From: Candidatus Heimdallarchaeota archaeon
Lineage (GTDB): Archaea; Asgardarchaeota; Heimdallarchaeia; Heimdallarchaeales; Kariarchaeaceae
Length of the DNA: 32,000 bases
Reading direction: 5' to 3'
Assembly (NCBI GenBank): GCA_030149205.1
Contig: JASBSB010000006.1
Location: 300,001-332,000 of the forward strand
The notes beneath the pieces were generated by a model. The model was not told the origin of the DNA. It saw only the letters and a list, made by a program, of their open reading frames with translations, and searched no databases. Shown here piece after piece: positions 10,000 to 30,069 of this stretch (within the stretch, counting starts at the first letter, position 1; the number at the start of each line of letters is the position of its first letter). The position numbers and the translations under genes were made by a program.

Positions 10000-10001
10000 T
10001 G

Positions 10002-11189
10002 TTACACCAACGGGCTCAAAATTTTTGCCAGAGTATAATTTTCTAAGGGCGTATCTTCTAGCTGTTCATAGATGGACACGTATTTATGGACATAATCAAG
10101 GCTTTTCATTTGATGAGTCAGCTTGATAGGAATGGTTTGAGGAAAGACAAAATAGAAAAATACATTTACCAGATTACCCTGTTTATCTGGGAGTTTAACT
10201 GGCATAAAGACCACCTGTAGATTATTATTGTTTGGGAATGGTAAGGAAAAGACACCCAAATCCCGGAATTGGTTCTCTTCCAAGGAATTCTTTAATGTAT
10301 TACCTATAGCTGTGATGAAGCTCACCTCAAATGCAAGCAGATCTTTTCGAGAAATTTGATAATGCTCTTGAAAGCTGGAATTTGACTGGAGCTGTGAAAT
10401 ATTTAATTTATCGACTCGAAAGACGCCCCATCCAAAGATCCCAAAATCCATGAACCTTTTTATGTTATCAGTAAATTGAAACAGGGTCATAGGGATGAGC
10501 AATAGGCTTACGAAAAGGAGGTTGGTTGTTATCACACTATCCAAAAGAGTTATTTCCATAGCGGGGGCAGGAAACAAGATAACAAGGACAATTATGATTG
10601 GTTTTATTACAAAGAGCAGGGTAGTAACCAGAGCATAAATAACAGAATACTGATTACTCTCCTTTAGATTGGGCTTTACTACCAGGATGAATTTTCGGAT
10701 TAGGTAGAAATTAAAGAGGAGTATGAATGTATTTGTCAATGAAAGTAATACTGCTACTGTGTGATTTACATTAAGGACAAAAACCCCCACGTTCAATACT
10801 GACTCATTCGATCTTACAAAAACGAACTCTGAAACAGCAATAGGTAAAAGGAATGCAAAGCTGAAGGGAATAAAGAATCTGATAACAAGATGCATAAACA
10901 CAGATTTGTAGTCACTTAATAGGGAAATAAAAAGGAACAATAGTACCAATTCCAAGGAATTGAGTACCTTCACCAACGACAGATACCCCTCATTAATTGG
11001 GAGCTGAAGTGCATTGTCATAAGACAGCTTAAGAAAAGCTATGAGAGCGAGATTTGAGAAGAAAGCCATTATCCAAACTAAGAATTTTAATTGGGTGGCT
11101 TCTCTTAGTGTCATAATTGTCTCAAAGAGCAGCAAGAAACCAGCAATCCAGATTGCTGTTATGAAGAGAGTTATCTCAAGTTGGCTCAT
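10002..11189 (-). CDS. 7TM protein with cytoplasmic longin/uDENN-like domain, type B
   Basis: Seven TM helices, then GIFGWGV...LAFEVSFITAIGN...SLPFP...LPDKQG. Paralog of 12567-13754. Confidence 0.7.
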   Translation of the reverse strand: MSQLEITLFITAIWIAGFLLLFETIMTLREATQLKFLVWIMAFFSNLALIAFLKLSYDNALQLPINEGYLSLVKVLNSLELVLLFLFISLLSDYKSVFMHLVIRFFIPFSFAFLLPIAVSEFVFVRSNESVLNVGVFVLNVNHTVAVLLSLTNTFILLFNFYLIRKFILVVKPNLKESNQYSVIYALVTTLLFVIKPIIIVLVILFPAPAMEITLLDSVITTNLLFVSLLLIPMTLFQFTDNIKRFMDFGIFGWGVFRVDKLNISQLQSNSSFQEHYQISRKDLLAFEVSFITAIGNTLKNSLEENQFRDLGVFSLPFPNNNNLQVVFMPVKLPDKQGNLVNVFFYFVFPQTIPIKLTHQMKSLDYVHKYVSIYEQLEDTPLENYTLAKILSPLV

Positions 11190-11245
11190 CAGTCTATGTA
11201 AAGCACCATCGTTTTTATTTGTTTGTAAGCACTTTCAAACAGGGC

Positions 11246-12520
11246 CTACAAAATGAGTGAGAAAACTTTCGAAACTATACTATTTATCATTGCTTCAGTG
11301 TAAATTGGTATATCTATATCATGGAATCTGCTGAGATACCCCTCAATTTCTTGAATGTAGATCATGGTAAAGGGTGTTGATTCTGGAACTACCAGGGATA
11401 GAATGAATGGAGCCTTTTGTTCCAATCTGTCGTCCTTCAGCTCAGAATTTTGAACTGTGGTTTTGAGATTCAGTGTGGCTAAATTGTTATGAAATGGGAT
11501 AACAAACCAATTGTTACCTCCTTCATTATCACTCACTAAGCCACTGAGAGAGATTGTAATAGCAGAAAAGGTTTGAATATCTTCGACAGATAAGTTGTAG
11601 AATCTCTTTAGATTCTCGGAGACCGCATGAGTCTTTGGACCTGTGTTAGCTAGGGTGGAGGTAACCCACCCGAGGTAACCACTATCTAAAAGAAATTTGA
11701 TATTTTTTTTGTTAAATGTTATTCCGTTGGTGCTGAGAATAAATGTACTGGTGAAGATCATGGTAAAAATTAGTGAGGGAACAATGATAAGCATGTCGAA
11801 TAGGTTTTGCATGTTCAGTTCGAGTGTGATAAATGAATCTCCTGTAATAATTTCAGTGAAAATAAAACTAAGAATAGAGTACGCTGCTAGAATGCGGATG
11901 TACTTAAGATACGTCTTGAGTGAATTATAATTACCAAAAAATTTAAGCCTGGACAAAATAAATGACCTCTCACCCAGGAAGAACCAAATTACTAACAATC
12001 CTGTAACTGCATAAATTGAGATCAGGAATGGTGAGATGTAAGGATGCCAAAGTGCGACCTCTTGCATATACTCTATTTTGTAGAGGGGAAACTCTTGGAA
12101 ATCAATGAATGAGAAGGTGAGTATGGAGAATATTAGTGATACATCAATTATCAAGAGATTTAGCACCAAGGTTGACCTGCTGTACTTCCTTCTAACTCTG
12201 TAATAATATTTTATTATGATGTATAAGACGGATAGCAGAAGCAGTTGATTGATTAGAAAATCGTAGAATGGGAATGAGGGGTTGTTGAAATAGGAGTTTC
12301 CAACAAATTTGGCAACATAAGAGAGGGAGAACAAATAGACAGACACTAAAGCAGAGATATCTAGATAGTAGTCTGTAGATTTGGGAACGGTTGTTTTTCT
12401 TGTGTACTGTGCAATCAGATACATGAAACTAAAAGTAACTATGATGATACTTATCCAAAAGTATGTGTTGTTGACTGCCATGAAGTCCCTCAAATCAATA
12501 AGTGAATGATAACTATACAA
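11246..12520 (-). CDS. 7TM protein with cytoplasmic longin/uDENN-like domain, type A'
   Basis: Shares blocks with 8752-9999: YYYRVRRKYS/YYYKVKKKYS, LGE..I..RL..FG, NIK.L..G..GW, ISLSG, WFV.P, D.RL. Confidence 0.7.
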   Translation of the reverse strand: MYSYHSLIDLRDFMAVNNTYFWISIIIVTFSFMYLIAQYTRKTTVPKSTDYYLDISALVSVYLFSLSYVAKFVGNSYFNNPSFPFYDFLINQLLLLSVLYIIIKYYYRVRRKYSRSTLVLNLLIIDVSLIFSILTFSFIDFQEFPLYKIEYMQEVALWHPYISPFLISIYAVTGLLVIWFFLGERSFILSRLKFFGNYNSLKTYLKYIRILAAYSILSFIFTEIITGDSFITLELNMQNLFDMLIIVPSLIFTMIFTSTFILSTNGITFNKKNIKFLLDSGYLGWVTSTLANTGPKTHAVSENLKRFYNLSVEDIQTFSAITISLSGLVSDNEGGNNWFVIPFHNNLATLNLKTTVQNSELKDDRLEQKAPFILSLVVPESTPFTMIYIQEIEGYLSRFHDIDIPIYTEAMINSIVSKVFSLIL

Positions 12521-12566
12521 ATTTCAGTGAACTCTTTTATAAGCTTTCTTTAAAATAATTCAGAAT

Positions 12567-13754
12567 TTAACGAATTAGTGGGCTGATTATCTCCGACACC
12601 TGAGGTGATGTGATGTATTTGACATTTAAACTTTCATATTTTGAGTTTAGTCTATAGATACCTGCTTCTGACTCTCGGAGAGCAGAGAGGTTTAACTGGG
12701 TTCGTGGAGAAGTTATCATAAAAATTAGTAATGTTCTGAGTCTACCATTTTTATCGGGCAAATAAATTGGGAGAAATAGAATTCGATGGTTTTTTGAAAA
12801 TGGGAATGGAATTGAAAGATAACGGAGATATGTACCAGATTCTTTTTGAGCTAATGCAGTAAGAACGGAGGTTTCAAAGGCTAAAATTGATTTTTGTGTG
12901 ACATTATTTCTTTTGAGGTATCCATCAGAGATAAATTTCAATTTAGGGTTATTCCCTTCTATCTCGAGAATGCCCCATCCAATATTTCCTGAATCTATCA
13001 ACTCCGCAAGTGTCTCTTTCATATGAAATAAAACCTCAGGATATGCTATTAAAGTTATAATCAAAGTTTGGAGGCTGGTGGTGAGAACAATCATGGACAG
13101 TTCAAAGGAAACAGATGGAAAATTTGCGAATGTAATGAGAGATGCTGGGATAAGGATTACAAGCATCAGGTCTGAAGCAAATAACAAACTTTGAAGTCCT
13201 CTTCTCTGAACTTCAAATGTTAGTGAATATTTCCTGATAAGATATCTGTTTGAGATCAGTGCCATTGCACTTCCGGAGAGATAAAAAATTCCAATGATGT
13301 ACTCTAAGGGGATATTTTTTATTGAGGTGTTAGGTATAGAGATACTGCTGTAAGGATATTGATAGGGTTGATCGGAGAGGAAGATCAATGTGATAAATGT
13401 AATTAAGAGAGGGGAAAAAAATTTGCTAAATAAATGCATTTCAATTGATTTATACTGAATATTTCTGCTGATAAAAAGATAAATGACTATGGTCTCACTT
13501 ATCAAAAATACCTTGACAAATCCTAATAGGAGGGTGAATTTGACCGGAAGAATAGAATTTGAATGTAAATATAGAACTTCAGCCTCTATAAAGTAAAAGA
13601 GGTAAAGTGATGTAGCAACGGTTATTAATAATAAAATCAACCAAACCTTTTTTCTTTCTTTGTTTGGATTAAATAGATAGATGGCAGTACCCACTATAAA
13701 TGAGCCTAAATTAATGACTAATGAAATAACCAGCAGGATGATGTCTATATCTAT
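12567..13754 (-). CDS. 7TM protein with cytoplasmic longin/uDENN-like domain, type B' (start uncertain)
   Basis: Shares blocks with 10002-11189: VKV...E.....LFIS...YKS..MHL..FF.P, YLIRK, GWG, LAFE.S..TA, PFP, LPDK.G. The open frame extends upstream of the called GTG at 13694 with a hydrophobic TM1 (IDIDIILLVISLVINLGSFIV). Confidence 0.7.
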   Translation of the reverse strand: MDIDIILLVISLVINLGSFIVGTAIYLFNPNKERKKVWLILLLITVATSLYLFYFIEAEVLYLHSNSILPVKFTLLLGFVKVFLISETIVIYLFISRNIQYKSIEMHLFSKFFSPLLITFITLIFLSDQPYQYPYSSISIPNTSIKNIPLEYIIGIFYLSGSAMALISNRYLIRKYSLTFEVQRRGLQSLLFASDLMLVILIPASLITFANFPSVSFELSMIVLTTSLQTLIITLIAYPEVLFHMKETLAELIDSGNIGWGILEIEGNNPKLKFISDGYLKRNNVTQKSILAFETSVLTALAQKESGTYLRYLSIPFPFSKNHRILFLPIYLPDKNGRLRTLLIFMITSPRTQLNLSALRESEAGIYRLNSKYESLNVKYITSPQVSEIISPLIR

Positions 13755-13909: not shown

Positions 13910-14374
13910 TCACACCGATGAGTATTTATAGAAGAGCAGACTTAGAATGAAGAGAGTGTATGATGAGATAGCTGATAACATGCAGTACAGGCAGATGCTT
14001 ACCAGAATTGCAACTTGTATAAATATTAGTCCTGTAGAGGCCAGAAATCCTACGCTAGTTAAAGCAGTGATAAATTTAGGATATTGGATGTTCTTTTGTT
14101 GAAGAAAAGCTAAGACCTGTCTCTCGAACATGACAATTAGTATTAAACTCAGGTAGTAGAGCATTCCAAATATGGAAATAGGGAGTCCAATAATAGTTGC
14201 ATACTGTGAGGTTAATATTGCACCGCAGTCCACTGGAATCCCAAAGATGTTAGATATAAATTGAGTTGTGCATGCAGCTGGATCGCTGTAATGACTGTTG
14301 GTCAGGTAAAGTGAGTCAAAGAAGCCTACAAGTGCCACCAACAAAACAGATATTGAGAATGTCTTCTGGTTCAT
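13910..14374 (-). CDS. Vitamin K epoxide reductase (VKOR) family membrane oxidoreductase
   Basis: Loop cysteine pair (C...C-GAILTSQYA), G-LP-S-FG motif, active-site CLYC and multiple TM helices. Confidence 0.92.
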   Translation of the reverse strand: MNQKTFSISVLLVALVGFFDSLYLTNSHYSDPAACTTQFISNIFGIPVDCGAILTSQYATIIGLPISIFGMLYYLSLILIVMFERQVLAFLQQKNIQYPKFITALTSVGFLASTGLIFIQVAILVSICLYCMLSAISSYTLFILSLLFYKYSSV

Positions 14375-14685
14375 ACCCTTGTTTCTGAATTCGTTATATT
14401 AAGATGTTCAAGCAATTAGGAAATATTGTTCTGAATAGATTGAACCTTTAGTAGAGGGGTTATTGGGTGGGTAGATCATTGAGTCCATCATTTGTCCTTA
14501 GAAATTCTTTCTAAAACCTGAGGTTGTAATGGATTGTTTCTAAGAATAGGGATAATCAAACTGATTTAGACATTAAATACCAACAATTTTCAAGATGTTG
14601 TTCAGTCTGATTTTGATAAAACAGTGAATAAGTCATATCTCTTGGTCTGGAAGCTTCAAGTTTTTAGATATAGTGGATCGAAGGT

Positions 14686-14762
14686 TTATGATGTTATGAT
14701 GCTAAGATATGAATCTAATGGTTATGATGCTAAGTTATGATGCAAATGGTTATGATGCTAAG
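14686..14762. repeat. Short direct-repeat array with 14/28-bp period, core GTTATGATGCTAAG
   Basis: Exact GTTATGATGCTAAG at 14693, 14721 and 14749 (28-bp spacing), with degenerate copies at 14686, 14707 and 14734. Confidence 0.85.
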
Positions 14763-14772
14763 ATACTTATGA

Positions 14773-15480
14773 CTAGATTTTTGGTTTAAGTGATTTCTCT
14801 TTCCCTTTTTTTTCTGGTTGGGGTATGGATTCACTGTTTGGTTTTCGGTTGATGAAGAGGTAAAGTCCAACGAGAATGCTTCCTCCAATCCCTGCCTGTA
14901 TAATGGGGTTGCTGAACAGTGCACCTAGTACACTTGGAGGGGTTCCTGGGTTTCCAACATAATTATTTGTAAGGGTAGTGTATGAAACCTTTCCCTGAAC
15001 CAGGGGGGAAATATAATTATACAATGTATTGAAATCAGTAAGCCCATTCCAGCTTTTCACCAGATACCCATTGGGGTCGAAAAGAATCATGGTGGGAGTA
15101 CCAGTTATACCAAACTTTTTTGCAAAAGCATCTGACTTGTCTAGACCCATAACCCAAGAAGTTATGTGTTGAGCTTTGAAATCCTTTATCGTGGTCAATG
15201 TATCTCTAGATCCTGCGAGAGAAACCATCGTGAAATTTCCTGTGATTGCATTGTTTAGTTTTTCAAGGTCAGGGTGTTGTTGAATGCAGAAATGGCACTG
15301 TGTCCAGAACCATTCCACAAATAGCCACTTACCTTGATAACTGCTGAACAATACACTGTTTCCACCGAGATTTGTAAATCCAAGGTTCAGATTATAAGCC
15401 TGAGCCTGAGTTTGGTTCATGGAAAATACAAGAATAATTAGTGTTAATGTCAACAACAGACTTTTAGATTTGAATCTCAT
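14773..15480 (-). CDS. TlpA/redoxin-family thiol-disulfide oxidoreductase, exported, with a C-terminal TM anchor
   Basis: Signal-like N-terminus from ATG 15480 (MRFKSKSLLLTLTLIILVFSM), WTQCHFC CxxC, cis-Pro GTPT motif and a C-terminal hydrophobic helix. Confidence 0.88.
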   Translation of the reverse strand: MRFKSKSLLLTLTLIILVFSMNQTQAQAYNLNLGFTNLGGNSVLFSSYQGKWLFVEWFWTQCHFCIQQHPDLEKLNNAITGNFTMVSLAGSRDTLTTIKDFKAQHITSWVMGLDKSDAFAKKFGITGTPTMILFDPNGYLVKSWNGLTDFNTLYNYISPLVQGKVSYTTLTNNYVGNPGTPPSVLGALFSNPIIQAGIGGSILVGLYLFINRKPNSESIPQPEKKGKEKSLKPKI

Positions 15481-15774
15481 AGATACAATTTGATATTTGG
15501 GGTTGATTTGATAAACATTTGTTTTGTAGACCTGTATCACGAGTATTTATGGGTAATTGAGTATATAAGACTCTTAGAAATTCATGTGTAATGACAAAAA
15601 CATTGATCCCAATATATTCATTTAGGAGATGGGAGTCTTTAGAATGAAAGTAAGAGTCTTTGGTTTGAAAATACCTGAGAGCACATACATGGGCTATATA
15701 TAATTCTTAATGAAGAGGTGTAATACCCCTGTGAGTTTGGGAAAAATTCAAAACAATGAGGTTAAGTCAGAGCT

Positions 15775-16655: not shown

Positions 16656-17600
16656 GTGGGTACAACGCCAACTTGTTATGAATGTGAAGAGAAAGTTGCT
16701 ATTCCCTTCAAATGTAAACTCTGTGGCAACAGTTACTGTAGCAGACACAGGCTACCAGAGAATCATAACTGTACAGAGATCGGACATTATAACTCTGCTG
16801 AGTATAAGTCTGCTAAGGCAAGAGGGGTTTATTCTACATTAAAAGAGACTGCTCAACCAGAGAAGACGTCTCCCATCTTTCAATTTCCCAAAAGAGGTAC
16901 ACCTAGAACCTCCAGCACCAGTACAGGTGGTGGAAGGCATTTCAGAAATGCAGCGATGACACAGTTTGAAAATAGGTTTTACGAGAGGGCATTGCTCTCT
17001 CACCCTGATGTTATCTCATTTGGAAGAGAGAGTGTGGATCTGCTTGTTGCGTTTATTCTGATCACATTCGCAGTTTCATTTAATCGATTGGTCAGCGGAA
17101 CATATACAGGAGAAGATGTGTTGATACTGGCAATTGCTCTGGCACCTGCCTTTATTTTACACGAGCTTGGGCATAAATACATGGCTGTTTATCTGGGGAG
17201 ATTCGCCAGATTCACCCTTTTCAAGCGATTAACACTGATAACACTACTTATGGGCCTTCTTCCATTCTTTATTGGTACACCTGGTACAACTATTATTCAG
17301 GGTGAGGAGATGAACAAGCAAGAACTTGGTGTTACAGCTTTAGCTGGTCCAATGGTGAATCTAGTATTAGCCTTAGGAGGACTGCTTGTTCTTCCATTTA
17401 TTCCTTCTGGAATATTTTACACCGCTACTTTGATGATTGTTACAATTAATCTAATACTTGGCATATTCAACTTAATACCTGTTTGGGTATTAGATGGTAA
17501 GAAAATATTTAACTGGTCAAAAGGTGTCTATGGATTAACTCTGGTGACTTTCATAGCTTTATTGGTTTTTCAGGTATCTATTTTTGGTTTGCCTTATTAA
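16656..17600 (+). CDS. AN1-type zinc finger fused to a site-2 protease (peptidase M50)
   Basis: CYECEEKVAIPFKCKLCGNSYCSRHRLPENHNC matches zf-AN1. HELGH, AGP-VN and NLIP-WVLDG give the M50 HExxH and NxxPxxxxDG motifs. Confidence 0.92.
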   Translation: MGTTPTCYECEEKVAIPFKCKLCGNSYCSRHRLPENHNCTEIGHYNSAEYKSAKARGVYSTLKETAQPEKTSPIFQFPKRGTPRTSSTSTGGGRHFRNAAMTQFENRFYERALLSHPDVISFGRESVDLLVAFILITFAVSFNRLVSGTYTGEDVLILAIALAPAFILHELGHKYMAVYLGRFARFTLFKRLTLITLLMGLLPFFIGTPGTTIIQGEEMNKQELGVTALAGPMVNLVLALGGLLVLPFIPSGIFYTATLMIVTINLILGIFNLIPVWVLDGKKIFNWSKGVYGLTLVTFIALLVFQVSIFGLPY

Positions 17601-17955: not shown

Positions 17956-18111
17956 GGTCTATTTTAGCTTGAGACTTTATTATTGTTTGTAAATGTGTGT
18001 TTGTAGCCCATCTCTTTACAACATGGGAAGTGGGCATCTTTGTTCCTGAACGATATTATATTATTGAAGTCTAATTAGTATAACCGCTTTTCAATAGAAA
18101 GGAGTTTTACA

Positions 18112-20403
18112 ATGAAGTATTTTAAATCACAGTTCACACTGCTTCTTCTCTTAAGTTCTTTAATGTTGGCAGGATCAATTGCATCAGACCAGACTTCCGT
18201 TGAAGAAATAAGCATTCAAGCAGGTGATTTGACCTTATATCCTGATACAGATCCAGATCTTTTAGCTCGAACAAGAACAGCAAATTTTGTTAAGTCTAGT
18301 CGAGCACTTCCTTCAAGTAACGGGAGTTCATTGGATCAGGTCTATTATCGGGTTGCTGCATTAAGAGTCCTAGACCCTAGTTTAGGGAACTTAAGCTCAT
18401 CGCAGAAACAATTTTACATTAATCAGGTTCTATCTTTCCAAAATACAAATGGTGGGTTTGGAGGTTGGTGGAAGGATAGAAGTTCCCTCGGAAACACCTA
18501 CAAGGCAGTTCAGGCGCTTAGCTGGCTAGGACACACAGGGTTAGACACAGTCAAAGTTAAAACTTATTTAGATAGGTTACAGAACACTTTAACCAAAGGT
18601 TTTAACTCTCACTTAGCTGACAGTGATAGTGATGTCTACACCACCTCACAGGCAGTTGAGACCTACACTCTTCTAGGTCAATCAATACCTTCTAGGGCAG
18701 ATGTGTTGAATCTATTGCAGAACTCTCAAAACCTCAACGCAGCAAAGGTATCTCCTTCAGAAATAGGTGGATTCGGATTGCAAACAAATGTCCTAAAAAA
18801 CATTTACTGGAAATCAGAGGTTACAACAACCAGTGCTGTGTTACATGCACTAAATGTTCTGGGTAGCAATGCAAAGAATTCTACTGAAGCAGCAAACTAT
18901 CTAAAAAATACACAAACCTCTTCTGGAGGATTTGTGAATGATTATATTTTAAAGAAGATCAGTGGGTCCTACACTGAGGCAGCTTTGGAAGGCTTACAGG
19001 TTTTAAGCACACTACCTACGGATTCAGTTAAGGCTGAGACCTATTTACGAAGCTTAGAACTCCCAAACGGTGGTTTTGCGCTTAAAACTGCAAGTGTGGA
19101 CTCAAGCCTGAAAGGTACATTCTTTGGTGTAAAAGGGTTGGAACTGCTTGGTGTAAAACCTACAAATGTTACAAAAACAATTGAATATTTACTTACCTTA
19201 CCTGACATGAATGATGGTTTTGGACAGCAGCCAGGAGAACTTGCCTCTCTAAGAGAGACCTTTGATGGTGTAGCTGCCTTGACTCTTGGAGGGAGGACTG
19301 TAAGCAATGTCCCAAATCTATTAGCTTATCTTGAACAGTACAGACAGACAGATGGTGGGTATGGTGTTACTGGTTCCTACATAGATAGTACCTCCAGAGT
19401 TATTAACACCTACGATCTTCTGAAGCAGACAGTACCAGCAAAGGCAGATGTAATAAAATTTATTCAGGACAGACAGCAGACAAACGGTGGATTCTCAAAG
19501 AAGCCACTGAACACCACAACTTTTGTCATTTCTACCTTTAGGGCTGTTGTTTCCTTGAGCTTACTTGGTGCCACACCTAAAGATGTTAGTGGAGCAATCA
19601 GCTATCTAAAGAGCACACAAAACACTGACGGAGGATTTGGAGGTTTTCCAGGTGACTCAAGTGATGTATCTAGTACCTACAGGGCGGTTCGTGCCCTCTC
19701 ACTTCTAGGAGACACAAGCTTCAATAAAGCAGGTGCTGTGAAATTCTTGCAAGATTCGCAGAACCCAAATGGTGGGTTTAAGAGAAGTGTGAATGATGTT
19801 GCACTTCCAAAGAACGCTTCCAGTGCAGTATACACCTACAGTGCTGTGAGAGCTCTCTACCTGCTAAGTTCAAAACCAAGTAACTTCAGTGGGGTTTATC
19901 ATTATGTTGTAAGTCTTCGGAACAATGATGGTGGGTATGGCAAGCATCCGAACTTCAGCTCAGATATTGCTTATACGTTCACATCACTTTGGATACTGAA
20001 GCACATGAATTCTGTGACAGGCTTCTCACTTACTGCTTCTCCATCACTTGGATCTACCAGAAACAGCTATTCTAGTGCGACCCTCCAGATAAATGGAGGT
20101 GTTCCCACATTTAACTACAGTGTTGGTGTTGCAAACGTAACCGCAAGAGTTACTGGAGTGATATCTTCTAGAACTGTCAGTATTGACACGAGTTCCATGT
20201 CTCCAGGTACATATGAGTTCGAAATTAACCTTAAGGATCTGACTGGTGCAGCAATCTCTGGCAAGTTCAAGGTGTACATCGGATCAGTACCACTTACCAA
20301 CCAGCCGACAAGCACCCCCAAACAGGGTTCTCCATTGCTCCTCTTGCCCTTGATTATAACACTATTCGGTGTTGCTTTCATTTCCATCAAGAGAAGGACT
20401 TAG
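18112..20403 (+). CDS. Exported prenyltransferase/squalene-oxidase-repeat protein (two alpha6/alpha6 barrels) with Ig-like domain and C-terminal TM/basic anchor
   Basis: Signal peptide, about 11 QxxxGG[FY]-type repeats, a beta-rich C-domain, an S/T/P-rich linker, a hydrophobic helix and KRRT. No Cys; about 10 N-x-S/T sequons by hand count. GGAG SD before the ATG. Confidence 0.85.
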   Translation: MKYFKSQFTLLLLLSSLMLAGSIASDQTSVEEISIQAGDLTLYPDTDPDLLARTRTANFVKSSRALPSSNGSSLDQVYYRVAALRVLDPSLGNLSSSQKQFYINQVLSFQNTNGGFGGWWKDRSSLGNTYKAVQALSWLGHTGLDTVKVKTYLDRLQNTLTKGFNSHLADSDSDVYTTSQAVETYTLLGQSIPSRADVLNLLQNSQNLNAAKVSPSEIGGFGLQTNVLKNIYWKSEVTTTSAVLHALNVLGSNAKNSTEAANYLKNTQTSSGGFVNDYILKKISGSYTEAALEGLQVLSTLPTDSVKAETYLRSLELPNGGFALKTASVDSSLKGTFFGVKGLELLGVKPTNVTKTIEYLLTLPDMNDGFGQQPGELASLRETFDGVAALTLGGRTVSNVPNLLAYLEQYRQTDGGYGVTGSYIDSTSRVINTYDLLKQTVPAKADVIKFIQDRQQTNGGFSKKPLNTTTFVISTFRAVVSLSLLGATPKDVSGAISYLKSTQNTDGGFGGFPGDSSDVSSTYRAVRALSLLGDTSFNKAGAVKFLQDSQNPNGGFKRSVNDVALPKNASSAVYTYSAVRALYLLSSKPSNFSGVYHYVVSLRNNDGGYGKHPNFSSDIAYTFTSLWILKHMNSVTGFSLTASPSLGSTRNSYSSATLQINGGVPTFNYSVGVANVTARVTGVISSRTVSIDTSSMSPGTYEFEINLKDLTGAAISGKFKVYIGSVPLTNQPTSTPKQGSPLLLLPLIITLFGVAFISIKRRT

Positions 20404-20416
20404 GTGCCTTAAGGTA

Positions 20417-23400
20417 ATGAATACCAAATTCTTGCTCATTTTTGTATTAATTTTTTCAATTGGTATATTCATTACTCCAACTCAGAGTTATATGGATAAT
20501 AACCTTTATCCATCTCTGGAAACTCAAGCTACAGACAAAATTTTAACTAATAGCACAGTTATTGATGATCTGGAAAAGTTTCTGACTCTCACACAGGATG
20601 ATAAACAGTTCGCAATCAAATCAATGGATCAAGCATTTTATTTAGGTCTAAGTATAAGATTTATTGAGACAATTCAAAATCCACCTCAAACATTGGTAGG
20701 AGATGTTGAAGAATTAAAGCTAAGGGTTTTAACCTATATCAACAATGTCCGCAACACCAATGGAGGATATGGAAATTGGAGAGGGGCTAAAAGTTCTGCT
20801 GAATCTACAGTTCAAGCAATAGATGTGTACAACGCACTTGGATTTCCACAGAACTTCACCTCAAAACAGGCTAATGAGACCATCGGTTTCATGAACACAT
20901 TAAAAACTAATTTGGGAGGGTTTTATCCTCTACAGGATTGGGACGCACCTGACATCACATCAACTTATCGAGCAGTATACATACAGAATCTTTTAAACAA
21001 ACAGTTCAATGTCAAAGCCATCAACAAAACTGGAATTAAGCAATTTGTTCAGAACAACTACATCACGCCTTTCTTTATTTCTGGAGCTTCGGGATATTCA
21101 GAGGTAAAGGGAGGAAAACCAGAGGTTCTTGCATCATTGGATGCATTAGAGACTTTTCTTGGTTTGAATCAAACTGATCCTTACAGAAGCTCGGTTATCA
21201 GGTTCATCAATTCACTCACCTCACCTAACGGTGGGGTTGCAGGATTTGAGGGCAAGCTTCCTAAGACAGGGTATACTTCTGCTGCAATACAGTATTACCT
21301 CAGAATCAAAAATTATTTCCCCGGTAACCTATCCGAATTTAACCTTGGTTTTTTGGATAGAGCGATAGATTATTTATTGGGGAATCGGGCACCAGATTCT
21401 GGGTTTACTGCTGCAGACACAGACAGCACCCCCGAACTTAGTAGTACATATTTTGTGCTGAGAAGCATTTATGAATTAAAACAGAACAATCTTTGGAATC
21501 GCTCAGTAGACCTAACGGGTGTCTACTCATTCCTCTTGAGTGGTCATGAACCTACTTATGGGTTAGGTGAGTATCCCGGAGATATAGCAGAGTTGTCGTA
21601 TACCAGTAGAGCTGTGCTTTTAGGCAGACTGATCAATCGAACGGATTGGATGAGTCCAAAGCTGATAGATTATATTTTAAAAAGCTTTGATGAAAAGAAC
21701 AGTGGATTTGGGTACAGACCGGGAGGGACTGCGCGTATAAAGTACACTTACTACGCATTGGCTGCACTGCGAGCATTGCATCACCCATTTTCGAACATTG
21801 ATCTGATAGTAGATTTTATTCTATCAGCTCAGACCCCAGATGGTGGCTTTGGGCAGATAAGCAAAGCAAAGATAAGCTATATCTCTCACACATTTTGGGC
21901 TATAAGCGCGTTAAAATCCTTGGGTCAACTGACAACTCTGACACTTGATTTTGCACAGATCTATAATTGGTTACAAGGGTTGAGAGACCCTGTAACTGGG
22001 ATGTATAAGAATTCCATAACTTCACAACCGTCCATACTTTCAACCTATAGGGCCATTCAGATTATGACTTATCTGGGATATTCTGTCGATAGTACTGATA
22101 CTGTTCATCAATCAATACATCAGTATCAAACAACATCTGGAGGATTTGTGAATGACCTTACTAAGACCCTTGCAACAATGGAAGCAACATATTTTGCGGT
22201 GAGAACCATGAGATTGTTAAACACTACCTATAATGAAAGCAAGGTCTACAAATATGTTAGGGGTCTTCTTAATAGTGATGGAGCATTTGCTCTTCGGGAG
22301 GGATTCTCAAGCAGAGTTTCTTCCTCATTTTATGCGGTTTCACTACTTAGAAAGATTGAGGGGGTGTCTAAAGACCTGTCACCTATAGAAGGAGGACTAC
22401 CTGACTTGTTTGCCCCAATCATAGAACCTGCTTTTGTTGCAAATCTACGAAAACAAAACAAAATATCTGGTTCATTCTCTCTGACAGCCCAGGTCAAGGA
22501 TCCAGAGGGAAACGTCTCAGGGTCTTGGATAGAGGCAAAATGGCAGAGATATTCAGATAATCAGACATTCTCTTACAGAGAATCAGGCACTAATCTGGGG
22601 AGAGACCAATGGGAATTTACTGTCGGTCCTTTTAACCAGACAGGTGTTCTTCTGTTTAGACTCATAGCAACGGATCTAAACAACAACACAGCCACCACAT
22701 CGTGGTTGGCATTAGATACCACAGGGATACCTGTGGGTGGGGGAGTCTTTGCAAGCATCAATTGGGAACGGATAATTCTAAATGTCCTTCCATACCTGAT
22801 GCTCTTCTTTGCGCTAATTGAGATGTTCTATGAGCGTTCAAAGAAAAAAGAAATATTAAATGAGAAGGTGAAAATGGTGTATCAACCCAAAAATCAGGAA
22901 GGTGACATAAACTTCGAGATGTTCAGCGCATTGCTGGTGATACTAGCGATGGTGGTTCTAAGTTTTGTTGCCAGAATCTATATTCAGGATGCTTTAATAA
23001 TCATACAAAAGTCAATATTTCTCTTCAGATTCTTATTGGCTGTTGTGGTAATAATTATAACAAAATATGTGCTTGGATTAGACACCTACGGGCTTTTTGC
23101 CCCAAGTGTCTTAGTTATTGCAATGCTTCAGGTGGGCCCATTCTGGGGTTCTGTGATATTTTTCAATGTGTTTGGACTATTGTATATCATTAGATCGCTC
23201 ATGGAGCCCTTGAATTTTCCCGTTGGATTCAGGATTGGGATAATGATGGTCTTCAATGTTGCATTTCTAGGGGTGTTGGAGCTGATTGGAGAGGTTTATC
23301 GGATCCCCTTTCTAGCTCAGGCACTCTTTGTTCCAATCATTATCATGCCTTGGATAGCCGACAGATATATCTCTAATGCAAGACAGTTTGATCAATTATT

Positions 23401-24553
23401 CGCCTTTACAAGGTTAATCATCAGCCTTCTCATTACACTTCTTGCATATGTCTTTATGTCTAATTCTGCCTTGGTAACCTTTGTTGCTGTGAATCCTGAG
23501 ACTTGGGTGGTCTTAATCGCGTTCTTGGTCTTCTTTGGTAAATACCGAAAATATACCATACTTGATAAGAGGAGGTTCTACCGGCTATTTAGAATCAAAA
23601 ACACCCCAATGTCTATGATGATTAGAAACCGTAACTATATCGCACAATACAATCCACCAATAATTCATCCTCTGATCAACAAGTATGACATGAAGGGTCT
23701 CTTCGATAAATGGGGCGTAGCCACCGCTGAACTTTTGGCTGTTGTGGATAATGTAGACCAGCTTGATCCCTTGTTCAAGAGGTTAAGCACTGAGGTTGTC
23801 TTCAAGAACGGATTTGTCATTAAACCTTCTCAAAGTTATGGAGGCATGGGGATAGTTGTGGTACAGGAAGTGACACCTGAAGGGAATTTCAGGGTTGGTT
23901 CAGATATTTACCACCCAGATGCACTCAAAGAGGAGTGTAAACGAATTATACAGGGTGAGTATCTGACAGCACACACCACCTCAGAAAATGATATCATAGT
24001 CATTGAGGAAAAGATTAACCTTGCTGATAGCATGAAATCTATCTCTATTGGGCTTCCAGACATAAGAGTAATAGTCTTTAGAGGTATCCCAGTGATGGCA
24101 ATGGCAAGGCTTCCAACCAAGGAGAGTGACGGAAAAGCCAACCTAAAACAGGGGGCTATTGGAGCAGGAATTCATCTCTCTTCAGGTCTTATTTTTAGAG
24201 CTGAGTGGAAGACAAACCCCCTCAATATTCATCCTGACACAGGAAATGAAATCATTGGATATCAATTCACGAAATGGGATGAGATATTAGCTGTTGCCTG
24301 TCTGGCGCAGAAAAGCACTGGGTTGGGTTATGCAGGTGTGGATCTTGTACTCGGACAGAAGAATGGAGAGGAAAAGATCTATGTGCTAGAGATCAACAAG
24401 AGGCCCGGTTTGGAGATACAAAATATCAACCTTGCAAGCCTAATGGAAAGGTTAGATTATATAGAGGACAATGACCTTGATATGACAGACAAGTCACCAA
24501 CAGCAGTTGTTAGATATGTGAAACAGTTATCTAAAGAGTATTGGGAGGTGTAA
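20417..24553 (+). CDS. Fusion protein: signal peptide + prenyltransferase-like barrels + Ig-like + 7TM_transglut-type membrane domain + RimK-related (alpha-L-glutamate ligase-like) ATP-grasp
   Basis: Start moved to ATG 20417 (MNTKFLLIFVL), 14 nt after the upstream stop. About 11 GG[FY] repeats; GLDTYGLFAPSVL...PIII...DR...NPE...GKYRKYT matches the PF14402 pattern; RNRNYIAQYNP, VIKP, PDIRVIVF, MARLPTKESDGKANLKQG, HPDTG, GVDLV and LEINKRPGL match TIGR02291/PF14397. Confidence 0.88.
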   Translation: MNTKFLLIFVLIFSIGIFITPTQSYMDNNLYPSLETQATDKILTNSTVIDDLEKFLTLTQDDKQFAIKSMDQAFYLGLSIRFIETIQNPPQTLVGDVEELKLRVLTYINNVRNTNGGYGNWRGAKSSAESTVQAIDVYNALGFPQNFTSKQANETIGFMNTLKTNLGGFYPLQDWDAPDITSTYRAVYIQNLLNKQFNVKAINKTGIKQFVQNNYITPFFISGASGYSEVKGGKPEVLASLDALETFLGLNQTDPYRSSVIRFINSLTSPNGGVAGFEGKLPKTGYTSAAIQYYLRIKNYFPGNLSEFNLGFLDRAIDYLLGNRAPDSGFTAADTDSTPELSSTYFVLRSIYELKQNNLWNRSVDLTGVYSFLLSGHEPTYGLGEYPGDIAELSYTSRAVLLGRLINRTDWMSPKLIDYILKSFDEKNSGFGYRPGGTARIKYTYYALAALRALHHPFSNIDLIVDFILSAQTPDGGFGQISKAKISYISHTFWAISALKSLGQLTTLTLDFAQIYNWLQGLRDPVTGMYKNSITSQPSILSTYRAIQIMTYLGYSVDSTDTVHQSIHQYQTTSGGFVNDLTKTLATMEATYFAVRTMRLLNTTYNESKVYKYVRGLLNSDGAFALREGFSSRVSSSFYAVSLLRKIEGVSKDLSPIEGGLPDLFAPIIEPAFVANLRKQNKISGSFSLTAQVKDPEGNVSGSWIEAKWQRYSDNQTFSYRESGTNLGRDQWEFTVGPFNQTGVLLFRLIATDLNNNTATTSWLALDTTGIPVGGGVFASINWERIILNVLPYLMLFFALIEMFYERSKKKEILNEKVKMVYQPKNQEGDINFEMFSALLVILAMVVLSFVARIYIQDALIIIQKSIFLFRFLLAVVVIIITKYVLGLDTYGLFAPSVLVIAMLQVGPFWGSVIFFNVFGLLYIIRSLMEPLNFPVGFRIGIMMVFNVAFLGVLELIGEVYRIPFLAQALFVPIIIMPWIADRYISNARQFDQLFAFTRLIISLLITLLAYVFMSNSALVTFVAVNPETWVVLIAFLVFFGKYRKYTILDKRRFYRLFRIKNTPMSMMIRNRNYIAQYNPPIIHPLINKYDMKGLFDKWGVATAELLAVVDNVDQLDPLFKRLSTEVVFKNGFVIKPSQSYGGMGIVVVQEVTPEGNFRVGSDIYHPDALKEECKRIIQGEYLTAHTTSENDIIVIEEKINLADSMKSISIGLPDIRVIVFRGIPVMAMARLPTKESDGKANLKQGAIGAGIHLSSGLIFRAEWKTNPLNIHPDTGNEIIGYQFTKWDEILAVACLAQKSTGLGYAGVDLVLGQKNGEEKIYVLEINKRPGLEIQNINLASLMERLDYIEDNDLDMTDKSPTAVVRYVKQLSKEYWEV

Positions 24554-24554
24554 C

Positions 24555-25685
24555 ATGAGAAACAAAACAAAGATTTATTTTATAATTCTTGCCATCCTGT
24601 TGTTCTCTGGTTCCTTTACAGTTCTATATTTCAATGAGGCAGATGAGGTGAAAAAGGGGGATGCTGATTATCAGCTCTCTTACAGATTCCGGATGCAAAA
24701 CCTTGGACCACTGAACCTTACAAGTGTATCTCTTCGATTAGCTCTACTAAAGACATGGGATCCTGTACAGACAGTCCACAACATTTCTGTGGAGACCCCC
24801 TTTAATTATACCTCCACAGACCAATACAACAATTCATACATTCATTATGATTACAGAAACTTCAGAGTTAATCAGACTGTGGATCTCATTGTTAGGGCGA
24901 ATCTTACAATCCCATTTCTGGATTATTCAAGAGCAAATATCAGAGCAAAGGAATATGACCAACAATCTAGCACATACAGGCTTTATACAGCATTCAATCC
25001 ATTAGCAGACAGCACAGATCCGGGAATTGTGAATCTAGCACAAAGCCTTACAAGATCGACTAACCCTATAGATATCGCATTTGAAGCTTACAATTTCTCA
25101 TCAACTTATCTCAAGTACAGACTGCTTAGCAATAGTCGTGGTGCTAAATTTGCCCTGCATAATGGATATGGTGACTGTGACGAGTACACAACACTCTTTA
25201 TGGCACTATTAAGAGCCAGAGGAATACCTGTGGTGGAACATACCGCATGGCTTGCTGATTTCATAGAGGGATATGAGGGGACTGATGATGGAGCTGCCGC
25301 TCATGCTTATCCAATGTTCTTTGTCGAAGGAATAGGAATGCTTCCCGTGGATCCAACCCGTGGAAACAAAAATCTTTTTGACAATTTCCTTAAAACTGAT
25401 CACAAGAGAATCACCCTGACTAGAGGTTACAATCAACCATATCGGTTGTTAAGATACAAATGGGTTCCAAATGCAAATCTTACTGATCCATTGGTTCAAA
25501 GCAACTACACCATCAAAATTGAAAAGTTAGCGATCAACTTTTTCTCAACCCTTAGAAGCAGCATCTACATCGTCTTGGTTGCAATTCCCATTATTTTCAT
25601 CCTTTACACAGGATTAGCAGGGAGAAAAGCTCAAAGGGAACGTCAGAAGAAGGTGAGACGAATACTGAAACAAGACCTATTCTAA
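24555..25685 (+). CDS. Membrane-anchored transglutaminase-like (Transglut_core) protein with intact catalytic triad
   Basis: GDCDEY (Cys), HAY (His), VDPT (Asp); N- and C-terminal TM helices; about 9 sequons; GGAGGTG SD at 24544-24550, start 1 nt after the upstream stop. Confidence 0.9.
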   Translation: MRNKTKIYFIILAILLFSGSFTVLYFNEADEVKKGDADYQLSYRFRMQNLGPLNLTSVSLRLALLKTWDPVQTVHNISVETPFNYTSTDQYNNSYIHYDYRNFRVNQTVDLIVRANLTIPFLDYSRANIRAKEYDQQSSTYRLYTAFNPLADSTDPGIVNLAQSLTRSTNPIDIAFEAYNFSSTYLKYRLLSNSRGAKFALHNGYGDCDEYTTLFMALLRARGIPVVEHTAWLADFIEGYEGTDDGAAAHAYPMFFVEGIGMLPVDPTRGNKNLFDNFLKTDHKRITLTRGYNQPYRLLRYKWVPNANLTDPLVQSNYTIKIEKLAINFFSTLRSSIYIVLVAIPIIFILYTGLAGRKAQRERQKKVRRILKQDLF

Positions 25686-27595: not shown

Positions 27596-28807
27596 ATGAA
27601 GAATTCAAAAATACCACATGATCTTTTGTTAGAGATTGTAGAAGAGAAGCACCAGATGCTTGAAAAAATAATGGTTGAGGAGGGCATTGGTTGTTGGGTG
27701 GTCTTCATGAGAGAGACATCAATAAACCCAGAACCTGTTCAAAACCTCGTGATAGGTGGAGATATTGTCTGGGAAAGTGCTTTTGTATTCACCTCTATTG
27801 GAAAATTTCGAAAGATTGCCTTGGTTGGTAACTTTGATGCTAAAGCAGAGGAATCAAAAGGGATCTGGACAGAGGTTAGGTCATACGTTAACGGTATTTC
27901 TGATGAGCTGAAAACCTTAATCAAGGAGATCTCTCCAAATAGTATAGCAATAAACTATTCTGAGGATGATGTTAGTGCTGATGGACTTTCTCATGGGATG
28001 TATCTCAAGCTCAGAGAGATACTCCCCAACCAGAAATTTGTGTCAGCTGAGAGAATTATCCAAAGAATCAGAGCAAAGAAGACTGAAAGCGAATTGGAGC
28101 AGATTAAACTTGCAGCACAACTGACTGAGACAATCAACCAAAAAGCTATATCGAAAGTTCGACTTGGAATGACTGAAAGGGAGATCCAGTGGATATTTCA
28201 TCAGTTGATGGACGAGTATGAGGTTGAGGAGGCATGGCAAAGAGTTTCCTGTCCAGCCATCGATGCTGGCCCCGAGAAAGAGATGGGACATGTGGGGCCA
28301 ACAGACCTGTCAATTACCAAATATAACACTTTACACAATGATTTTGGAATAAGATACAATGGATACTGTTCTGATATACAACGAATGTGGTTTTTTGGAG
28401 AAGATGAAGAGATTCCTGAAATGTTGACTCATGCCTTTGAGACAGTTAGAACCGCAATTCACATCGCAGCCAAATTTATTAGACCTGGAGTCAAGGGGTT
28501 TGAGGTGGATAAAATTGCAAGGGATTACGTGATCTCCAGAGGGTATGAAGAATACAAACATGCGTTGGGACATCAGGTTGGCACCCAGGCACATGATGGA
28601 GGAACAATATTGGGACCAAAATGGGAGAGGTATGGGAAGCTCCCTGAGGGGATAATCGAGGAGGGAAATGTCTTTACTCTTGAATTATATGTTAAAACTG
28701 CTCACTTTGGAATGGTCTCCCTTGAAGAGATGATCATTGTAAGAAACGGTCTCGCAGAGTTCATTGTACCCCCTCAAGAAAAATTCATTACTATATCTCA
28801 TCATTAA
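27596..28807 (+). CDS. Xaa-Pro aminopeptidase/prolidase family (M24B)
   Basis: Metal-binding motifs DFG...GYCSDIQR, HALGH, AHD, TLE and SLEE. Confidence 0.93.
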   Translation: MKNSKIPHDLLLEIVEEKHQMLEKIMVEEGIGCWVVFMRETSINPEPVQNLVIGGDIVWESAFVFTSIGKFRKIALVGNFDAKAEESKGIWTEVRSYVNGISDELKTLIKEISPNSIAINYSEDDVSADGLSHGMYLKLREILPNQKFVSAERIIQRIRAKKTESELEQIKLAAQLTETINQKAISKVRLGMTEREIQWIFHQLMDEYEVEEAWQRVSCPAIDAGPEKEMGHVGPTDLSITKYNTLHNDFGIRYNGYCSDIQRMWFFGEDEEIPEMLTHAFETVRTAIHIAAKFIRPGVKGFEVDKIARDYVISRGYEEYKHALGHQVGTQAHDGGTILGPKWERYGKLPEGIIEEGNVFTLELYVKTAHFGMVSLEEMIIVRNGLAEFIVPPQEKFITISHH

Positions 28808-30069
28808 CCTAGTTCTCTTAGAATCAACTCTCTCAAACCAGGTGGTTCAAGCATTGAAGTCTTTTCAAGGAGTGTTCGGTTTTCGTACACTTTAAGAAAT
28901 TGATAAACGTCCTTAGATAGTTGATTTAAGATGATATCCAAAAATTTGCTCAATCTCTCAGCAACTACTGCAAACAACCATATTTCATCTCCAACCTGTA
29001 TCTTTTTAATTATGACTGCCCTCATATCCATACGAACAACGATCTCTTCATTATTAAGTCCATTCAAGGAGTTAAAATACATGAAGATTGCACTAACAAA
29101 TCCACCTTTCAAAAGTTTATTTGAGGTCGATGTTTTAGTCAACTGAAATTGATACACCGGTACCCCTCCATTTTTAATTATGAATAATTCGTATACAGGT
29201 GAAACCAAAGTTGTCAAGAAGTTTGGGTCTCTTAGGTAAAGTATTAGCAAGGGAATAAAGAACAGAGGGATTACTTCACTTCCAAAAAACACCTTTGGAA
29301 ATCGGAATAATGTGTATGTGGTCATGAGAATCAAGGCCTCAACAAGCCCAAGAACTAGAGTGAACTGAAATCGAGCTGAGCGTGTAAAATCTCTGGAATT
29401 TAAACGTAGATTTAAGCAGTTATAATAAGAATAAGCAGCATAAATTGAAACAAATAGGCCACCAGCAAAGTAAATTGTAAATTGAATAAAGGGAGCGATT
29501 ACAGGGTCTTGAAAATAATCAACTCCGCTGATAGAATAGACGATTGTTAAAAAAATCGCTGGTGCAACCCCTATGATTATTATGAAGGATTTTAATATTG
29601 TAACTCGTAAATTTCGTTGGTATTCTAAATGTAAAAAGGTGAAAAATATAAAGAGGGCAAAGAAAAGAAACCAGAAATAATCGTGAAGATGGTAATCTAA
29701 ATAATCTAATTTGTCAGGCACAAACGCTTTAGAGCTTGATTGAACATAAGCACTCCAAAAATAAGATAATGACACACTTAAGATACTAAGAGCAAAATAC
29801 TTGCTGACTCCCAACCTTTTAATTCGAATCGCTTGGAGCACAAAGATCAAATCAAACAGGAAAAGGATTAACCCCGGTACAACAAAATATAGAGGTAAAT
29901 GTTGCCATTCCATTGTTCGAATTACAAAGTAGTTGCTGGAATAAACCGGTTCAGAAAAAAAGTAGACAGCACTTACATAAAGTAGTTGAATTACCAAAAC
30001 GGGAATCCCTATGGTTTTTACAACCTTCTTCGACCCATCTTTGAATCCAACCAACTCATATGGATTCAT
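28804..30069 (-). CDS. Multi-TM (about 8) protein with C-terminal longin-like domain
   Basis: Hydrophobic helices to about aa 280, then VYELFIIKNGGVPVY...LLKGGFVSAIFMYF...LFAVVAE...LNQL, a longin-like beta-beta-alpha-beta-beta-beta-alpha pattern. Confidence 0.7.
   Translation of the reverse strand: MNPYELVGFKDGSKKVVKTIGIPVLVIQLLYVSAVYFFSEPVYSSNYFVIRTMEWQHLPLYFVVPGLILFLFDLIFVLQAIRIKRLGVSKYFALSILSVSLSYFWSAYVQSSSKAFVPDKLDYLDYHLHDYFWFLFFALFIFFTFLHLEYQRNLRVTILKSFIIIIGVAPAIFLTIVYSISGVDYFQDPVIAPFIQFTIYFAGGLFVSIYAAYSYYNCLNLRLNSRDFTRSARFQFTLVLGLVEALILMTTYTLFRFPKVFFGSEVIPLFFIPLLILYLRDPNFLTTLVSPVYELFIIKNGGVPVYQFQLTKTSTSNKLLKGGFVSAIFMYFNSLNGLNNEEIVVRMDMRAVIIKKIQVGDEIWLFAVVAERLSKFLDIILNQLSKDVYQFLKVYENRTLLEKTSMLEPPGLRELILRELG

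Follow-up and report, generated by a model that had tools for sequence, protein, structure and literature searches.

The closest described relatives of the gene cassette analysed here are bacterial gene sets that pair an ATP-grasp ligase with a seven-transmembrane (7TM) protein bearing an inactive transglutaminase domain, and the gene neighbourhood of these bacterial sets is said to have been predicted by Iyer et al. in 2009 (Mol Biosyst 5:1636) to be a peptide-modification system. The cassette consists of three open reading frames (ORF1, ORF2 and ORF3) in a 32,000-nucleotide (nt) stretch of DNA from Candidatus Heimdallarchaeota archaeon, an Asgard archaeon (GenBank assembly GCA_030149205.1, contig JASBSB010000006.1, positions 300,001 to 332,000 of the forward strand), which we refer to as the window. 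Among the bacterial systems, RloABC of Pseudomonas aeruginosa comprises a secreted retropepsin (RloA), an inactive transglutaminase-7TM protein (RloB) and a cytoplasmic ATP-grasp protein (RloC) (Lormand et al. 2025, PMC11957051 and PMC12239564). Pseudomonas lacking its three RloA proteases shows hypo-osmotic lethality and envelope defects, a phenotype reported from this genus only, and deletion of rloB or rloC rescues it (PMC11957051). In Shewanella, a mutant of the rloB type makes membrane vesicles in excess (PMC12096838), and more broadly the bacterial Rlo-type systems influence antibiotic tolerance, cell shape and the formation of biofilms and vesicles (PMC11957051, PMC12096838).

We conclude that the three Asgard genes very probably act jointly as an Rlo-like variant. 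The cassette resembles RloABC in combining an ATP-grasp domain of the PF14397 family, TIGR02291-like but below the cut-off of that model, with a PF14402 7TM protein that bears an extracytoplasmic domain, in adding a separate extracytoplasmic enzyme of the protease or transglutaminase kind, and in being a three-gene envelope unit. It differs in that its host is archaeal, its ligase is fused to the 7TM domain, and the ectodomain on that domain is a double toroid without the inactive transglutaminase; a second toroid protein (ORF1) has been added, and the transglutaminase-fold protein (ORF3) is separate, doubly anchored and intact in its triad. The family of the inactive transglutaminase ectodomain (PF14400) had no match in the cassette proteins, and the retropepsin family of RloA (PF05618) had none either in the cassette or in the 93.5% complete genome of the window. 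Because the 7TM domain carries no inactive transglutaminase and no retropepsin was found, we regard the cassette as a variant of the Rlo type and not as a member. The original prediction, made from the window's sequence, had proposed kinship with the bacterial ATP-grasp and 7TM-inactive-transglutaminase system; the kinship held up, but the retropepsin component of that system had been omitted (PMC11957051).

Gene organization and co-occurrence

The three ORFs are co-directional, with 13 nt between ORF1 and ORF2 and 1 nt between ORF2 and ORF3 (Table 1), and purine-rich motifs resembling Shine-Dalgarno (SD) sequences lie upstream of their starts (aggag, aaggt and gggaggtg for ORF1, ORF2 and ORF3). 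The genes thus form an operon-like unit, as had been claimed on the same grounds. The ORF3 ATG at 24555 stands 1 nt beyond the ORF2 TAA. For ORF2, the ATG at 20417 lies 13 nt past the ORF1 stop, and a GTG at 20369 is likewise open; the database gene call starts 25 codons downstream of this ATG, giving a protein of 1353 amino acids (aa) that has lost its signal peptide. We favour 20417 as the start because homologues have hydrophobic N-termini. The cassette is flanked upstream by a MazG-like gene on the opposite strand and downstream, after 126 nt containing a T-run, by a short-chain dehydrogenase gene.

Table 1. Coordinates of the features discussed. Positions are those of the window, except for L034, L038 and L039, which are other loci.
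Feature	Position	Strand	Description
Intergenic region 5' of ORF1, divergent	17956..18111	+	AT-rich TATA-like stretches and aggag SD-like motif; putative promoter (sequence only)
ORF1	18112..20403	+	763 aa; signal peptide, two toroids, beta-rich domain, stalk, transmembrane helix, basic tail
ORF2 (whole gene)	20417..24553	+	1378 aa counted from ATG
ORF2 outside part (residues 1-782)	20417..22762	+	Signal peptide, toroid region ~45-650, beta-rich segment ~655-775; all 14 ORF2 sequons
ORF2 membrane domain (residues 783-1043)	22763..23545	+	PF14402 7TM_transglut type; eight hydrophobic helical segments
ORF2 ATP-grasp ligase domain (residues 1070-1350)	23624..24466	+	PF14397, TIGR02291-like; predicted cytoplasmic
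ORF3	24555..25685	+	376 aa; doubly anchored transglutaminase-fold protein
Cys208 codon	25176..25178	+	Putative nucleophile; sole Cys of ORF3; Cys in 26/27 family members
His250 codon	25302..25304	+	Triad; 27/27 family members; also kept in bacterial fusions
Asp266 codon	25350..25352	+	Triad; invariant in 27/27 family members
L034	4718-11449		Single-chain transglutaminase-7TM-ATP-grasp gene, then tetratricopeptide repeat (TPR) protein gene
L038	5001-9787		Single-chain transglutaminase-7TM-ATP-grasp gene, then TPR protein gene
L039	4546-10354		Single-chain transglutaminase-7TM-ATP-grasp gene, then TPR protein gene

Next, we looked at how the three genes are distributed across 400 genomes of the phylum, representing 85 genera. 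ORF2 was present in 17 of the 400 genomes and 11 of the 85 genera. Strong ORF3 orthologues (E value of 1e-47 or better) were found in 16 of these 17 genomes and in none of the other 383, where ORF3 hits were at the paralogue level only (E values of 1e-15 to 1e-23); in the 17th genome, ORF2 itself is interrupted by a contig end. ORF1 occurred in the same 17 genomes and in two fragmented ones. We fetched 14 loci, nine of which had all three genes on the contig while the further ones were cut by contig ends, and the order ORF1-ORF2-ORF3 and its tight spacing were kept wherever the contig permits (9 complete). None of the window's nine flanking genes recurred at the fetched loci. These results indicate that the presence of the three genes is all or none and that their distribution among Asgard archaea is patchy. 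A lack of co-conservation had been named beforehand by the original prediction as an observation that could overturn it, and both the genome survey and the fetched loci spoke strongly for co-conservation.

A word-based protein search gave a matching picture outside the survey. The toroid-7TM-ATP-grasp architecture was represented by about 28 clusters (1340-1510 aa), and the ORF3 family by a tight set of 42 clusters (every E value <1e-100); for both, the source labels were all archaeal and all but one Asgard. The public records carry generic names ("sugar-transfer associated ATP-grasp protein" and "transglutaminase family protein"), and literature searches with the Pfam names and accessions, and with Asgard combined with transglutaminase and ATP-grasp, found no paper describing this cassette. 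Two loci depart from the usual gene structure. At L030 (G069:C102, 1214-5384), ORF2 is in two frames 7 nt apart (split or frameshift) in the loop after the first transmembrane (TM) helix. L031 (G076:C445, 1929-4552) holds a divergent copy in which 7TM and ATP-grasp domains are encoded by a gene of their own and the ORF3 homologue has Ser at the position of the catalytic Cys.

Single-chain fusions and predicted contact between ORF2 and ORF3

A second line of evidence for joint action comes from proteins in which a transglutaminase core, a 7TM domain and an ATP-grasp domain are fused in a single chain of 812-832 aa (P0034-P0036, P0039 and P0042), with bacterial-type neighbours at three loci. Like the cassette, these fusions place an intact transglutaminase core on the outside, a PF14402 domain within the membrane and a PF14397 domain on the inside, and they have an adjacent helical-repeat partner gene and no retropepsin called nearby (none within 5-6 kb of the three loci). 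The triad Cys and His were each kept in 5/5 of the fusions and the Asp in 4/5. Unlike the cassette, the fusions lack toroids, have a TPR protein as their partner and stand in a bacterial context, and their transglutaminase part is only 14-19% identical to ORF3. As Rosetta-stone evidence, they suggest that an active transglutaminase-fold ectodomain works physically with the 7TM-ligase. They also qualify the emphasis that had been placed on a separate transglutaminase with an intact triad: such an enzyme is present in the window, but intact transglutaminases in systems of this kind are not confined to Asgard archaea, since the bacterial fusions have one.

We also evaluated contact between the two proteins by co-folding. 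The C-terminal part of ORF2 with ORF3 scored 0.45, as against 0.00 for the best of three controls, with at least 80% contact agreement between runs and a predicted local distance difference test (pLDDT) value of at least 82 for the partner. In the calibration, the mark was reached by 58/80 solved complexes and 2/110 mismatched pairs; scores of 0.60 or lower included only 7/80 solved complexes that reached the mark, plus both of the passing mismatches. Co-folding therefore lends weak support to a predicted ORF2-ORF3 contact.

The TPR proteins at L034, L038 and L039 are 623-764 aa long, and in two of these loci a protein of ~375 aa without an assigned family follows the TPR gene. L034 and L035, which represent one lineage, both have a gene for an extracytoplasmic function (ECF) sigma factor and one for a 243-aa unknown protein immediately upstream. 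A further locus (L036, 2864-6597) encodes a 770-aa 7TM-ATP-grasp protein that has no ectodomain and carries a C-terminal extension of ~190 aa; a gene for a 462-aa protein without an assigned family comes next, and haloarchaeal-type helix-turn-helix regulators adjoin.

Topology of the three proteins

Hydrophobic N-termini and TM segments were found in all three proteins, in agreement with the export and membrane signals first claimed for them. The proteins contain 10 (ORF1), 14 (ORF2) and 10 (ORF3) N-x-S/T sequons, close to the hand counts of about 10, 14 and 9 from which the topology had originally been argued; 14/14 of those in ORF2 fall within residues 45-756, and 9/10 of those in ORF3 within the ectodomain. 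We judged enrichment against shuffles of each region's own composition. The ORF3 ectodomain was clearly enriched (9 versus 3.1 expected, P ~0.002), the ORF2 ectodomain only marginally so (14 versus 8.2 expected, P = 0.04) and ORF1 not at all (10 versus 9.7 expected), while the absence of sequons from the ORF2 ATP-grasp part (zero versus 1.7 expected) was not significant by itself. The counts thus stood, but their weight as proof of topology was downgraded, being clearly significant for ORF3 only. Several of the ORF3 sequons occupy conserved alignment columns.

Across 26 ORF2 homologues, sequon density was 1.62 per 100 aa outside versus 0.52 in the ATP-grasp part, and Cys was rare in the ectodomains (16 in 20,640 residues) compared with the ligase parts (38 in 8,710). 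In the ORF2 membrane domain, the loop after the first helix is rich in Lys and 11 Lys/Arg residues come after the last, a pattern that fits an N-terminus outside and a ligase inside. Taken together, the signal peptides, the positive-inside loops, the distribution of sequons and the lack of Cys in the ectodomains support the predicted outside/inside orientation well in outline.

ORF2 joins a double toroid to a membrane-tethered ligase domain

In ORF2, a double toroid on the outside is joined to a PF14402 membrane domain and an amino-acid ligase domain resembling those of RimK, ArgX and MptN. PF14402 matched at 55.5 bits (cut-off 25), with residues 873-1057 on profile positions 63-247, and PF14397 at 164.1 bits (cut-off 31.4) over residues 1070-1350. 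Pfam likewise returned PF00432 and PF01841 for the other parts of the cassette, so that each of the earlier domain calls was confirmed, including the tandem barrels at the outside position on the 7TM domain. The membrane domain contains conserved polar residues in the alignment, and the C-terminal part of ORF2 (residues 765-1378) has a confident predicted fold (pLDDT 84.4).

The kinship of the ligase domain was seen by fold searches; a PDB sequence search with the ATP-grasp part gave no match. Its closest solved folds were ArgX (Z 16.3), RimK (Z 15.9) and LysX/ArgX (Z 14.9), and its closest Swiss-Prot folds were MptN and alpha-L-glutamate ligases. The ATP-grasp fold is shared with these enzymes (ArgX, root mean square deviation 3.1 over 219 aligned residues; RimK, 3.7 over 223), whereas the sequence scores lie outside the RimK and MptN families (TIGR00768, 22.6 bits against 143.4; MptN, 31.7 against 350) and the ORF2 ligase differs from all of them in being tethered to a membrane domain. 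The positions assigned to nucleotide and Mg binding are invariant columns in 31 aligned sequences; from family knowledge, we take these sites to be the Lys of the (F/V)xxKP strand, the Gly-rich GxGI loop, the GxD Asp and the C-terminal ExN.

The Swiss-Prot fold matches of the ligase domain begin at about residue 94-100 of their targets, and these comparisons showed nothing that matched the acceptor-binding lobe which ATP-grasp enzymes usually have at the N-terminus. Some 40 residues separate the last TM helix of ORF2 from the fold-matched ligase region. Given the unmatched lobe and this short spacing, the cytoplasmic face of the membrane domain may help to hold the acceptor.

The toroids are most likely binding modules

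Hairpin repeat motifs of the GG[FWY] type, 11 in ORF1 (GG[FY]) and 5 in ORF2, point to an alpha/alpha toroid architecture in both proteins. ORF1 has a signal peptide (residues 1-25), two alpha/alpha toroids (~55-640), a beta-rich domain (~640-720), a short S/T/P stalk, a TM helix (residues 741-759) and a basic tail. It is ~25% identical to the ORF2 ectodomain across ~600 aa (E values of 1e-25 to 1e-35 between family members), and from this sequence kinship we identify ORF1 as a membrane-anchored paralogue of the ORF2 ectodomain. The beta-rich segments of both proteins had no significant Pfam family. In relatives of ORF1, the stalk ranges from none to >60 residues, and a TM helix and basic tail are all that 11 aligned C-termini have in common. 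Accordingly, no motif shared by these 11 C-termini precedes the TM helix, and no NCBIfam CTERM model for an archaeosortase sorting signal (PGF-CTERM and kin) matched ORF1.

Neither ORF1 nor residues 1-1173 of ORF2 contain a single Cys, and a motif check found neither DxDD nor DDxxD in the toroids of either protein. The missing Cys excludes the zinc ligand of a prenyltransferase, and the missing DxDD the catalytic acid of a class II cyclase; the sequences thus indicate that the toroids are most likely binding modules and not enzymes. A thioester reading, modelled on the thioester domain (TED) of alpha-2-macroglobulin, was rejected on the same absence of Cys from the toroids. An ESM Atlas search with ORF1 gave sub-threshold leads only (0.81), to archaeal surface proteins with PKD plus TED/squalene-cyclase-like domains.

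ORF3 is a membrane-anchored transglutaminase-fold enzyme

ORF3 matched PF01841 at 38.7 bits (cut-off 23) over residues 161-267. Its layout is an N-terminal TM helix (residues 7-27), a beta-sandwich (33-123), a transglutaminase core (139-329), a second TM helix (~332-356) and a basic tail that is predicted to be cytoplasmic (357-376). The intact triad that had been reported for ORF3 was borne out by the alignment, with C208 in 26/27 family members and H250 and D266 in 27/27; the sole exception at Cys208 is the G076 variant, which has Ser. On the strength of this conservation, ORF3 can be identified from its sequence as a membrane-anchored transglutaminase-fold enzyme with a Cys-His-Asp triad.

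The ORF3 model was predicted with a pLDDT of 89.6. Its best solved match in Foldseek was 3isr (E value of 8e-14, template modelling score of 0.66 by target), a two-domain putative cysteine protease from Cytophaga, and further matches were TgpA, TglA, TG2/TG3, LapG and PeiP. ORF3 shares with 3isr, TgpA, LapG and PeiP/PeiW a beta-sandwich joined to a papain-like transglutaminase core, the Cys-His-Asp triad and an extracytoplasmic location; identity to them is only 13-18%, and ORF3 stands apart from prokaryotic transglutaminase-fold enzymes by its TM helices at both ends and its conserved cytoplasmic tail. We considered whether the ORF3 C-terminus could be a substrate of the ligase, as bS6 is of RimK, and dropped this candidate, since conservation covers the motif in the tail and not the residues at the very end.

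Relatives of ORF3 also occur apart from the cassette. The window's genome has a second transglutaminase-core match (G000:C7:53036-53215, minus strand) inside a 1066-aa open frame, and in about 49 further genomes of the phylum there are paralogue-level relatives (25-34% identity, in frames of 400-800 aa) without the ligase. These paralogues indicate that a surface enzyme made of beta-sandwich and transglutaminase core belongs to a wider Asgard family.

How the cassette may work

The reading that we favour, tentatively and at somewhat less than even chances, is that a ligase product is made at the membrane and processed outside by a Cys-His-Asp enzyme acting mainly as a hydrolase. The ligase would sit at the cytoplasmic face of its own membrane domain and extend a membrane-held carboxylate acceptor by one or more amino acids, which its nearest relatives suggest are most likely acidic and alpha-linked. 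The product would get to the outer face via or along the 7TM domain and be bound there by the non-catalytic toroids, and ORF3 would process it, mainly as a peptidase or isopeptidase. In doing so, ORF3 would stand in for the secreted retropepsin RloA, which counteracts the RloB/RloC product in Pseudomonas.

Hydrolysis is favoured for three reasons. The sampled systems with a live transglutaminase lack a retropepsin, whereas the canonical system has a dead transglutaminase together with a retropepsin; the genetics of Pseudomonas show the outside enzyme antagonising the ligase side (PMC11957051); and the better structural matches of ORF3 are proteases (3isr, and LapG and PeiP among characterised enzymes). 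The findings suit a hydrolytic role like that of the Rlo protease no less well than they suit cross-linking.

Several points weigh against this reading. The complementarity between live transglutaminase and retropepsin was seen in one genome and three loci and had no systematic control. The fold of ORF3 is compatible with either a hydrolase or a transamidase, and true transglutaminases are also among its matches; its tail carries a conserved K-L-x-x-L-L-x-P motif that the favoured model does not explain. On the side of ORF2, the models for the Rlo proteins fell far under their cut-offs, another difference from RloABC: TIGR02291, the RloC-type equivalog, scored 212.9 bits (NCBIfam cut-off 314.2), and the RloB model NF052267 scored 39.2 bits (cut-off 900) on the 7TM part only. 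Eight hydrophobic segments were counted in the membrane domain, whereas the topology requires an odd number of passes (7 or 9). Finally, Rlo-type systems have genetics and no known biochemical activity (PMC11957051), and because no biochemical function is known for any of them, we infer the product, the acceptor and the export step alike.

The strongest alternative, which we consider unlikely and yet worth keeping in view, is that proposed originally: ORF3 would be a true transglutaminase or transpeptidase that attaches the ligase product (or Gln/Lys side chains) covalently to glycoproteins of the surface, for example ORF1, giving a cross-linked or peptide-decorated envelope. It agrees with the intact and conserved triad, with the presence of TG2, TG3, factor XIII and TgpA among the structural matches, with ORF1 as an abundant-looking, anchored and sequon-rich surface protein of the same cassette, and with the strict co-conservation of the three genes. 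Yet the structures that match better, and the prokaryotic relatives among them that have been characterised, are proteases or isopeptidases (3isr, LapG and PeiP), no acceptor motif was identified, and the antagonism between the outside enzyme and the ligase-side genes in Pseudomonas is a better fit to hydrolysis (PMC11957051); moreover, presence in only 17/400 genomes means that such an envelope would not be a general Asgard wall. Cross-linking stays a live rival because the retropepsin sample is small and the fold cannot separate a hydrolase from a transamidase.

Less probable again is a transmembrane sensor, in which the toroids would bind an external ligand, the 7TM domain would relay the signal, the ATP-grasp domain would modify a cytoplasmic target, for instance the C-terminus of a protein in the manner of RimK, and ORF3 would trim or mature the ectodomains. 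The architecture is receptor-like (ligand-binding ectodomain, 7TM and cytoplasmic enzyme), and ORF3 has its conserved cytoplasmic tail motif. ArgX/LysX and RimK, the nearest ligase folds, attach amino acids to the C-terminal residue of a protein, and their targets are cytoplasmic (bS6 for RimK, LysW for ArgX/LysX). However, the cassette includes no gene for a cytoplasmic substrate or regulator, the acceptor-binding N-lobe that is used for protein substrates is unmatched in ORF2, and the protease that interacts genetically with RloB/RloC in Pseudomonas is located in the periplasm, putting the relevant product on the outside (PMC11957051).

A more ambitious version of cross-linking would make the cassette a self-contained builder of a covalent peptide surface layer, with the ligase polymerising an acidic peptide, the 7TM domain exporting it, the toroids holding it and ORF3 stitching it to anchored glycoproteins. 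We regard this as a long shot; if true, wall cross-linking would have been solved independently a third time, alongside murein and pseudomurein, and the role of the Rlo-type systems in bacteria would come to light. That the toroids are themselves catalytic, as extracellular prenyltransferase- or terpene-cyclase-like enzymes acting on isoprenoid lipids of the envelope with the ligase and transglutaminase as accessories, is highly improbable: the PF00432 scores are strong (181.8 bits in ORF1 and 138.1 in ORF2) and sequence matches in the PDB include squalene-cyclase-like proteins and farnesyltransferase beta subunits, but those matches span only repeat-level stretches of 75-140 residues, the toroids lack Cys as a zinc ligand as well as DxDD and DDxxD, and we know of no supply of isoprenoid diphosphate outside the cell.

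As an Rlo-like variant, the cassette can be seen as a natural re-wiring of Rlo, in which ligase and membrane domain are fused, toroids replace the dead transglutaminase and a live transglutaminase-fold enzyme replaces the retropepsin. Variants of this kind narrow down the necessary role of the conserved core, and this one offers new biochemical handles, such as a ligase and membrane domain within one chain and an enzyme with a single Cys. The cassette is also a defined, lineage-restricted element of the little-known Asgard cell surface.

Neighbouring genes in the window

Elsewhere in the window, a region of ~1 kb (6960-7950) has a GC content of ~16%, compared with 34-47% in the rest, and contains no ORF of at least 100 aa. 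Four consecutive ORFs of 375-424 aa follow on the minus strand (8752-13694); the one scanned (12567-13694) has no Pfam family. Next to them (13910-15540, minus strand), a VKOR-family gene adjoins a gene for a membrane-type thioredoxin/redoxin; from their sequences the two look like an extracytoplasmic disulfide-forming pair, in contrast to the cassette ectodomains, which are nearly devoid of Cys. The gene at 16656-17600 (plus strand) encodes a fusion of an AN1-type zinc finger with a peptidase domain of the M50 (site-2 protease) type. Beyond the cassette (28804-30069, minus strand) lies a gene for a 421-aa protein, a possible trafficking protein of eukaryote-like kind, with a weak, sub-cut-off match (E value of 2e-4) to longin domain 1 of INTU/CCZ1/HPS4.

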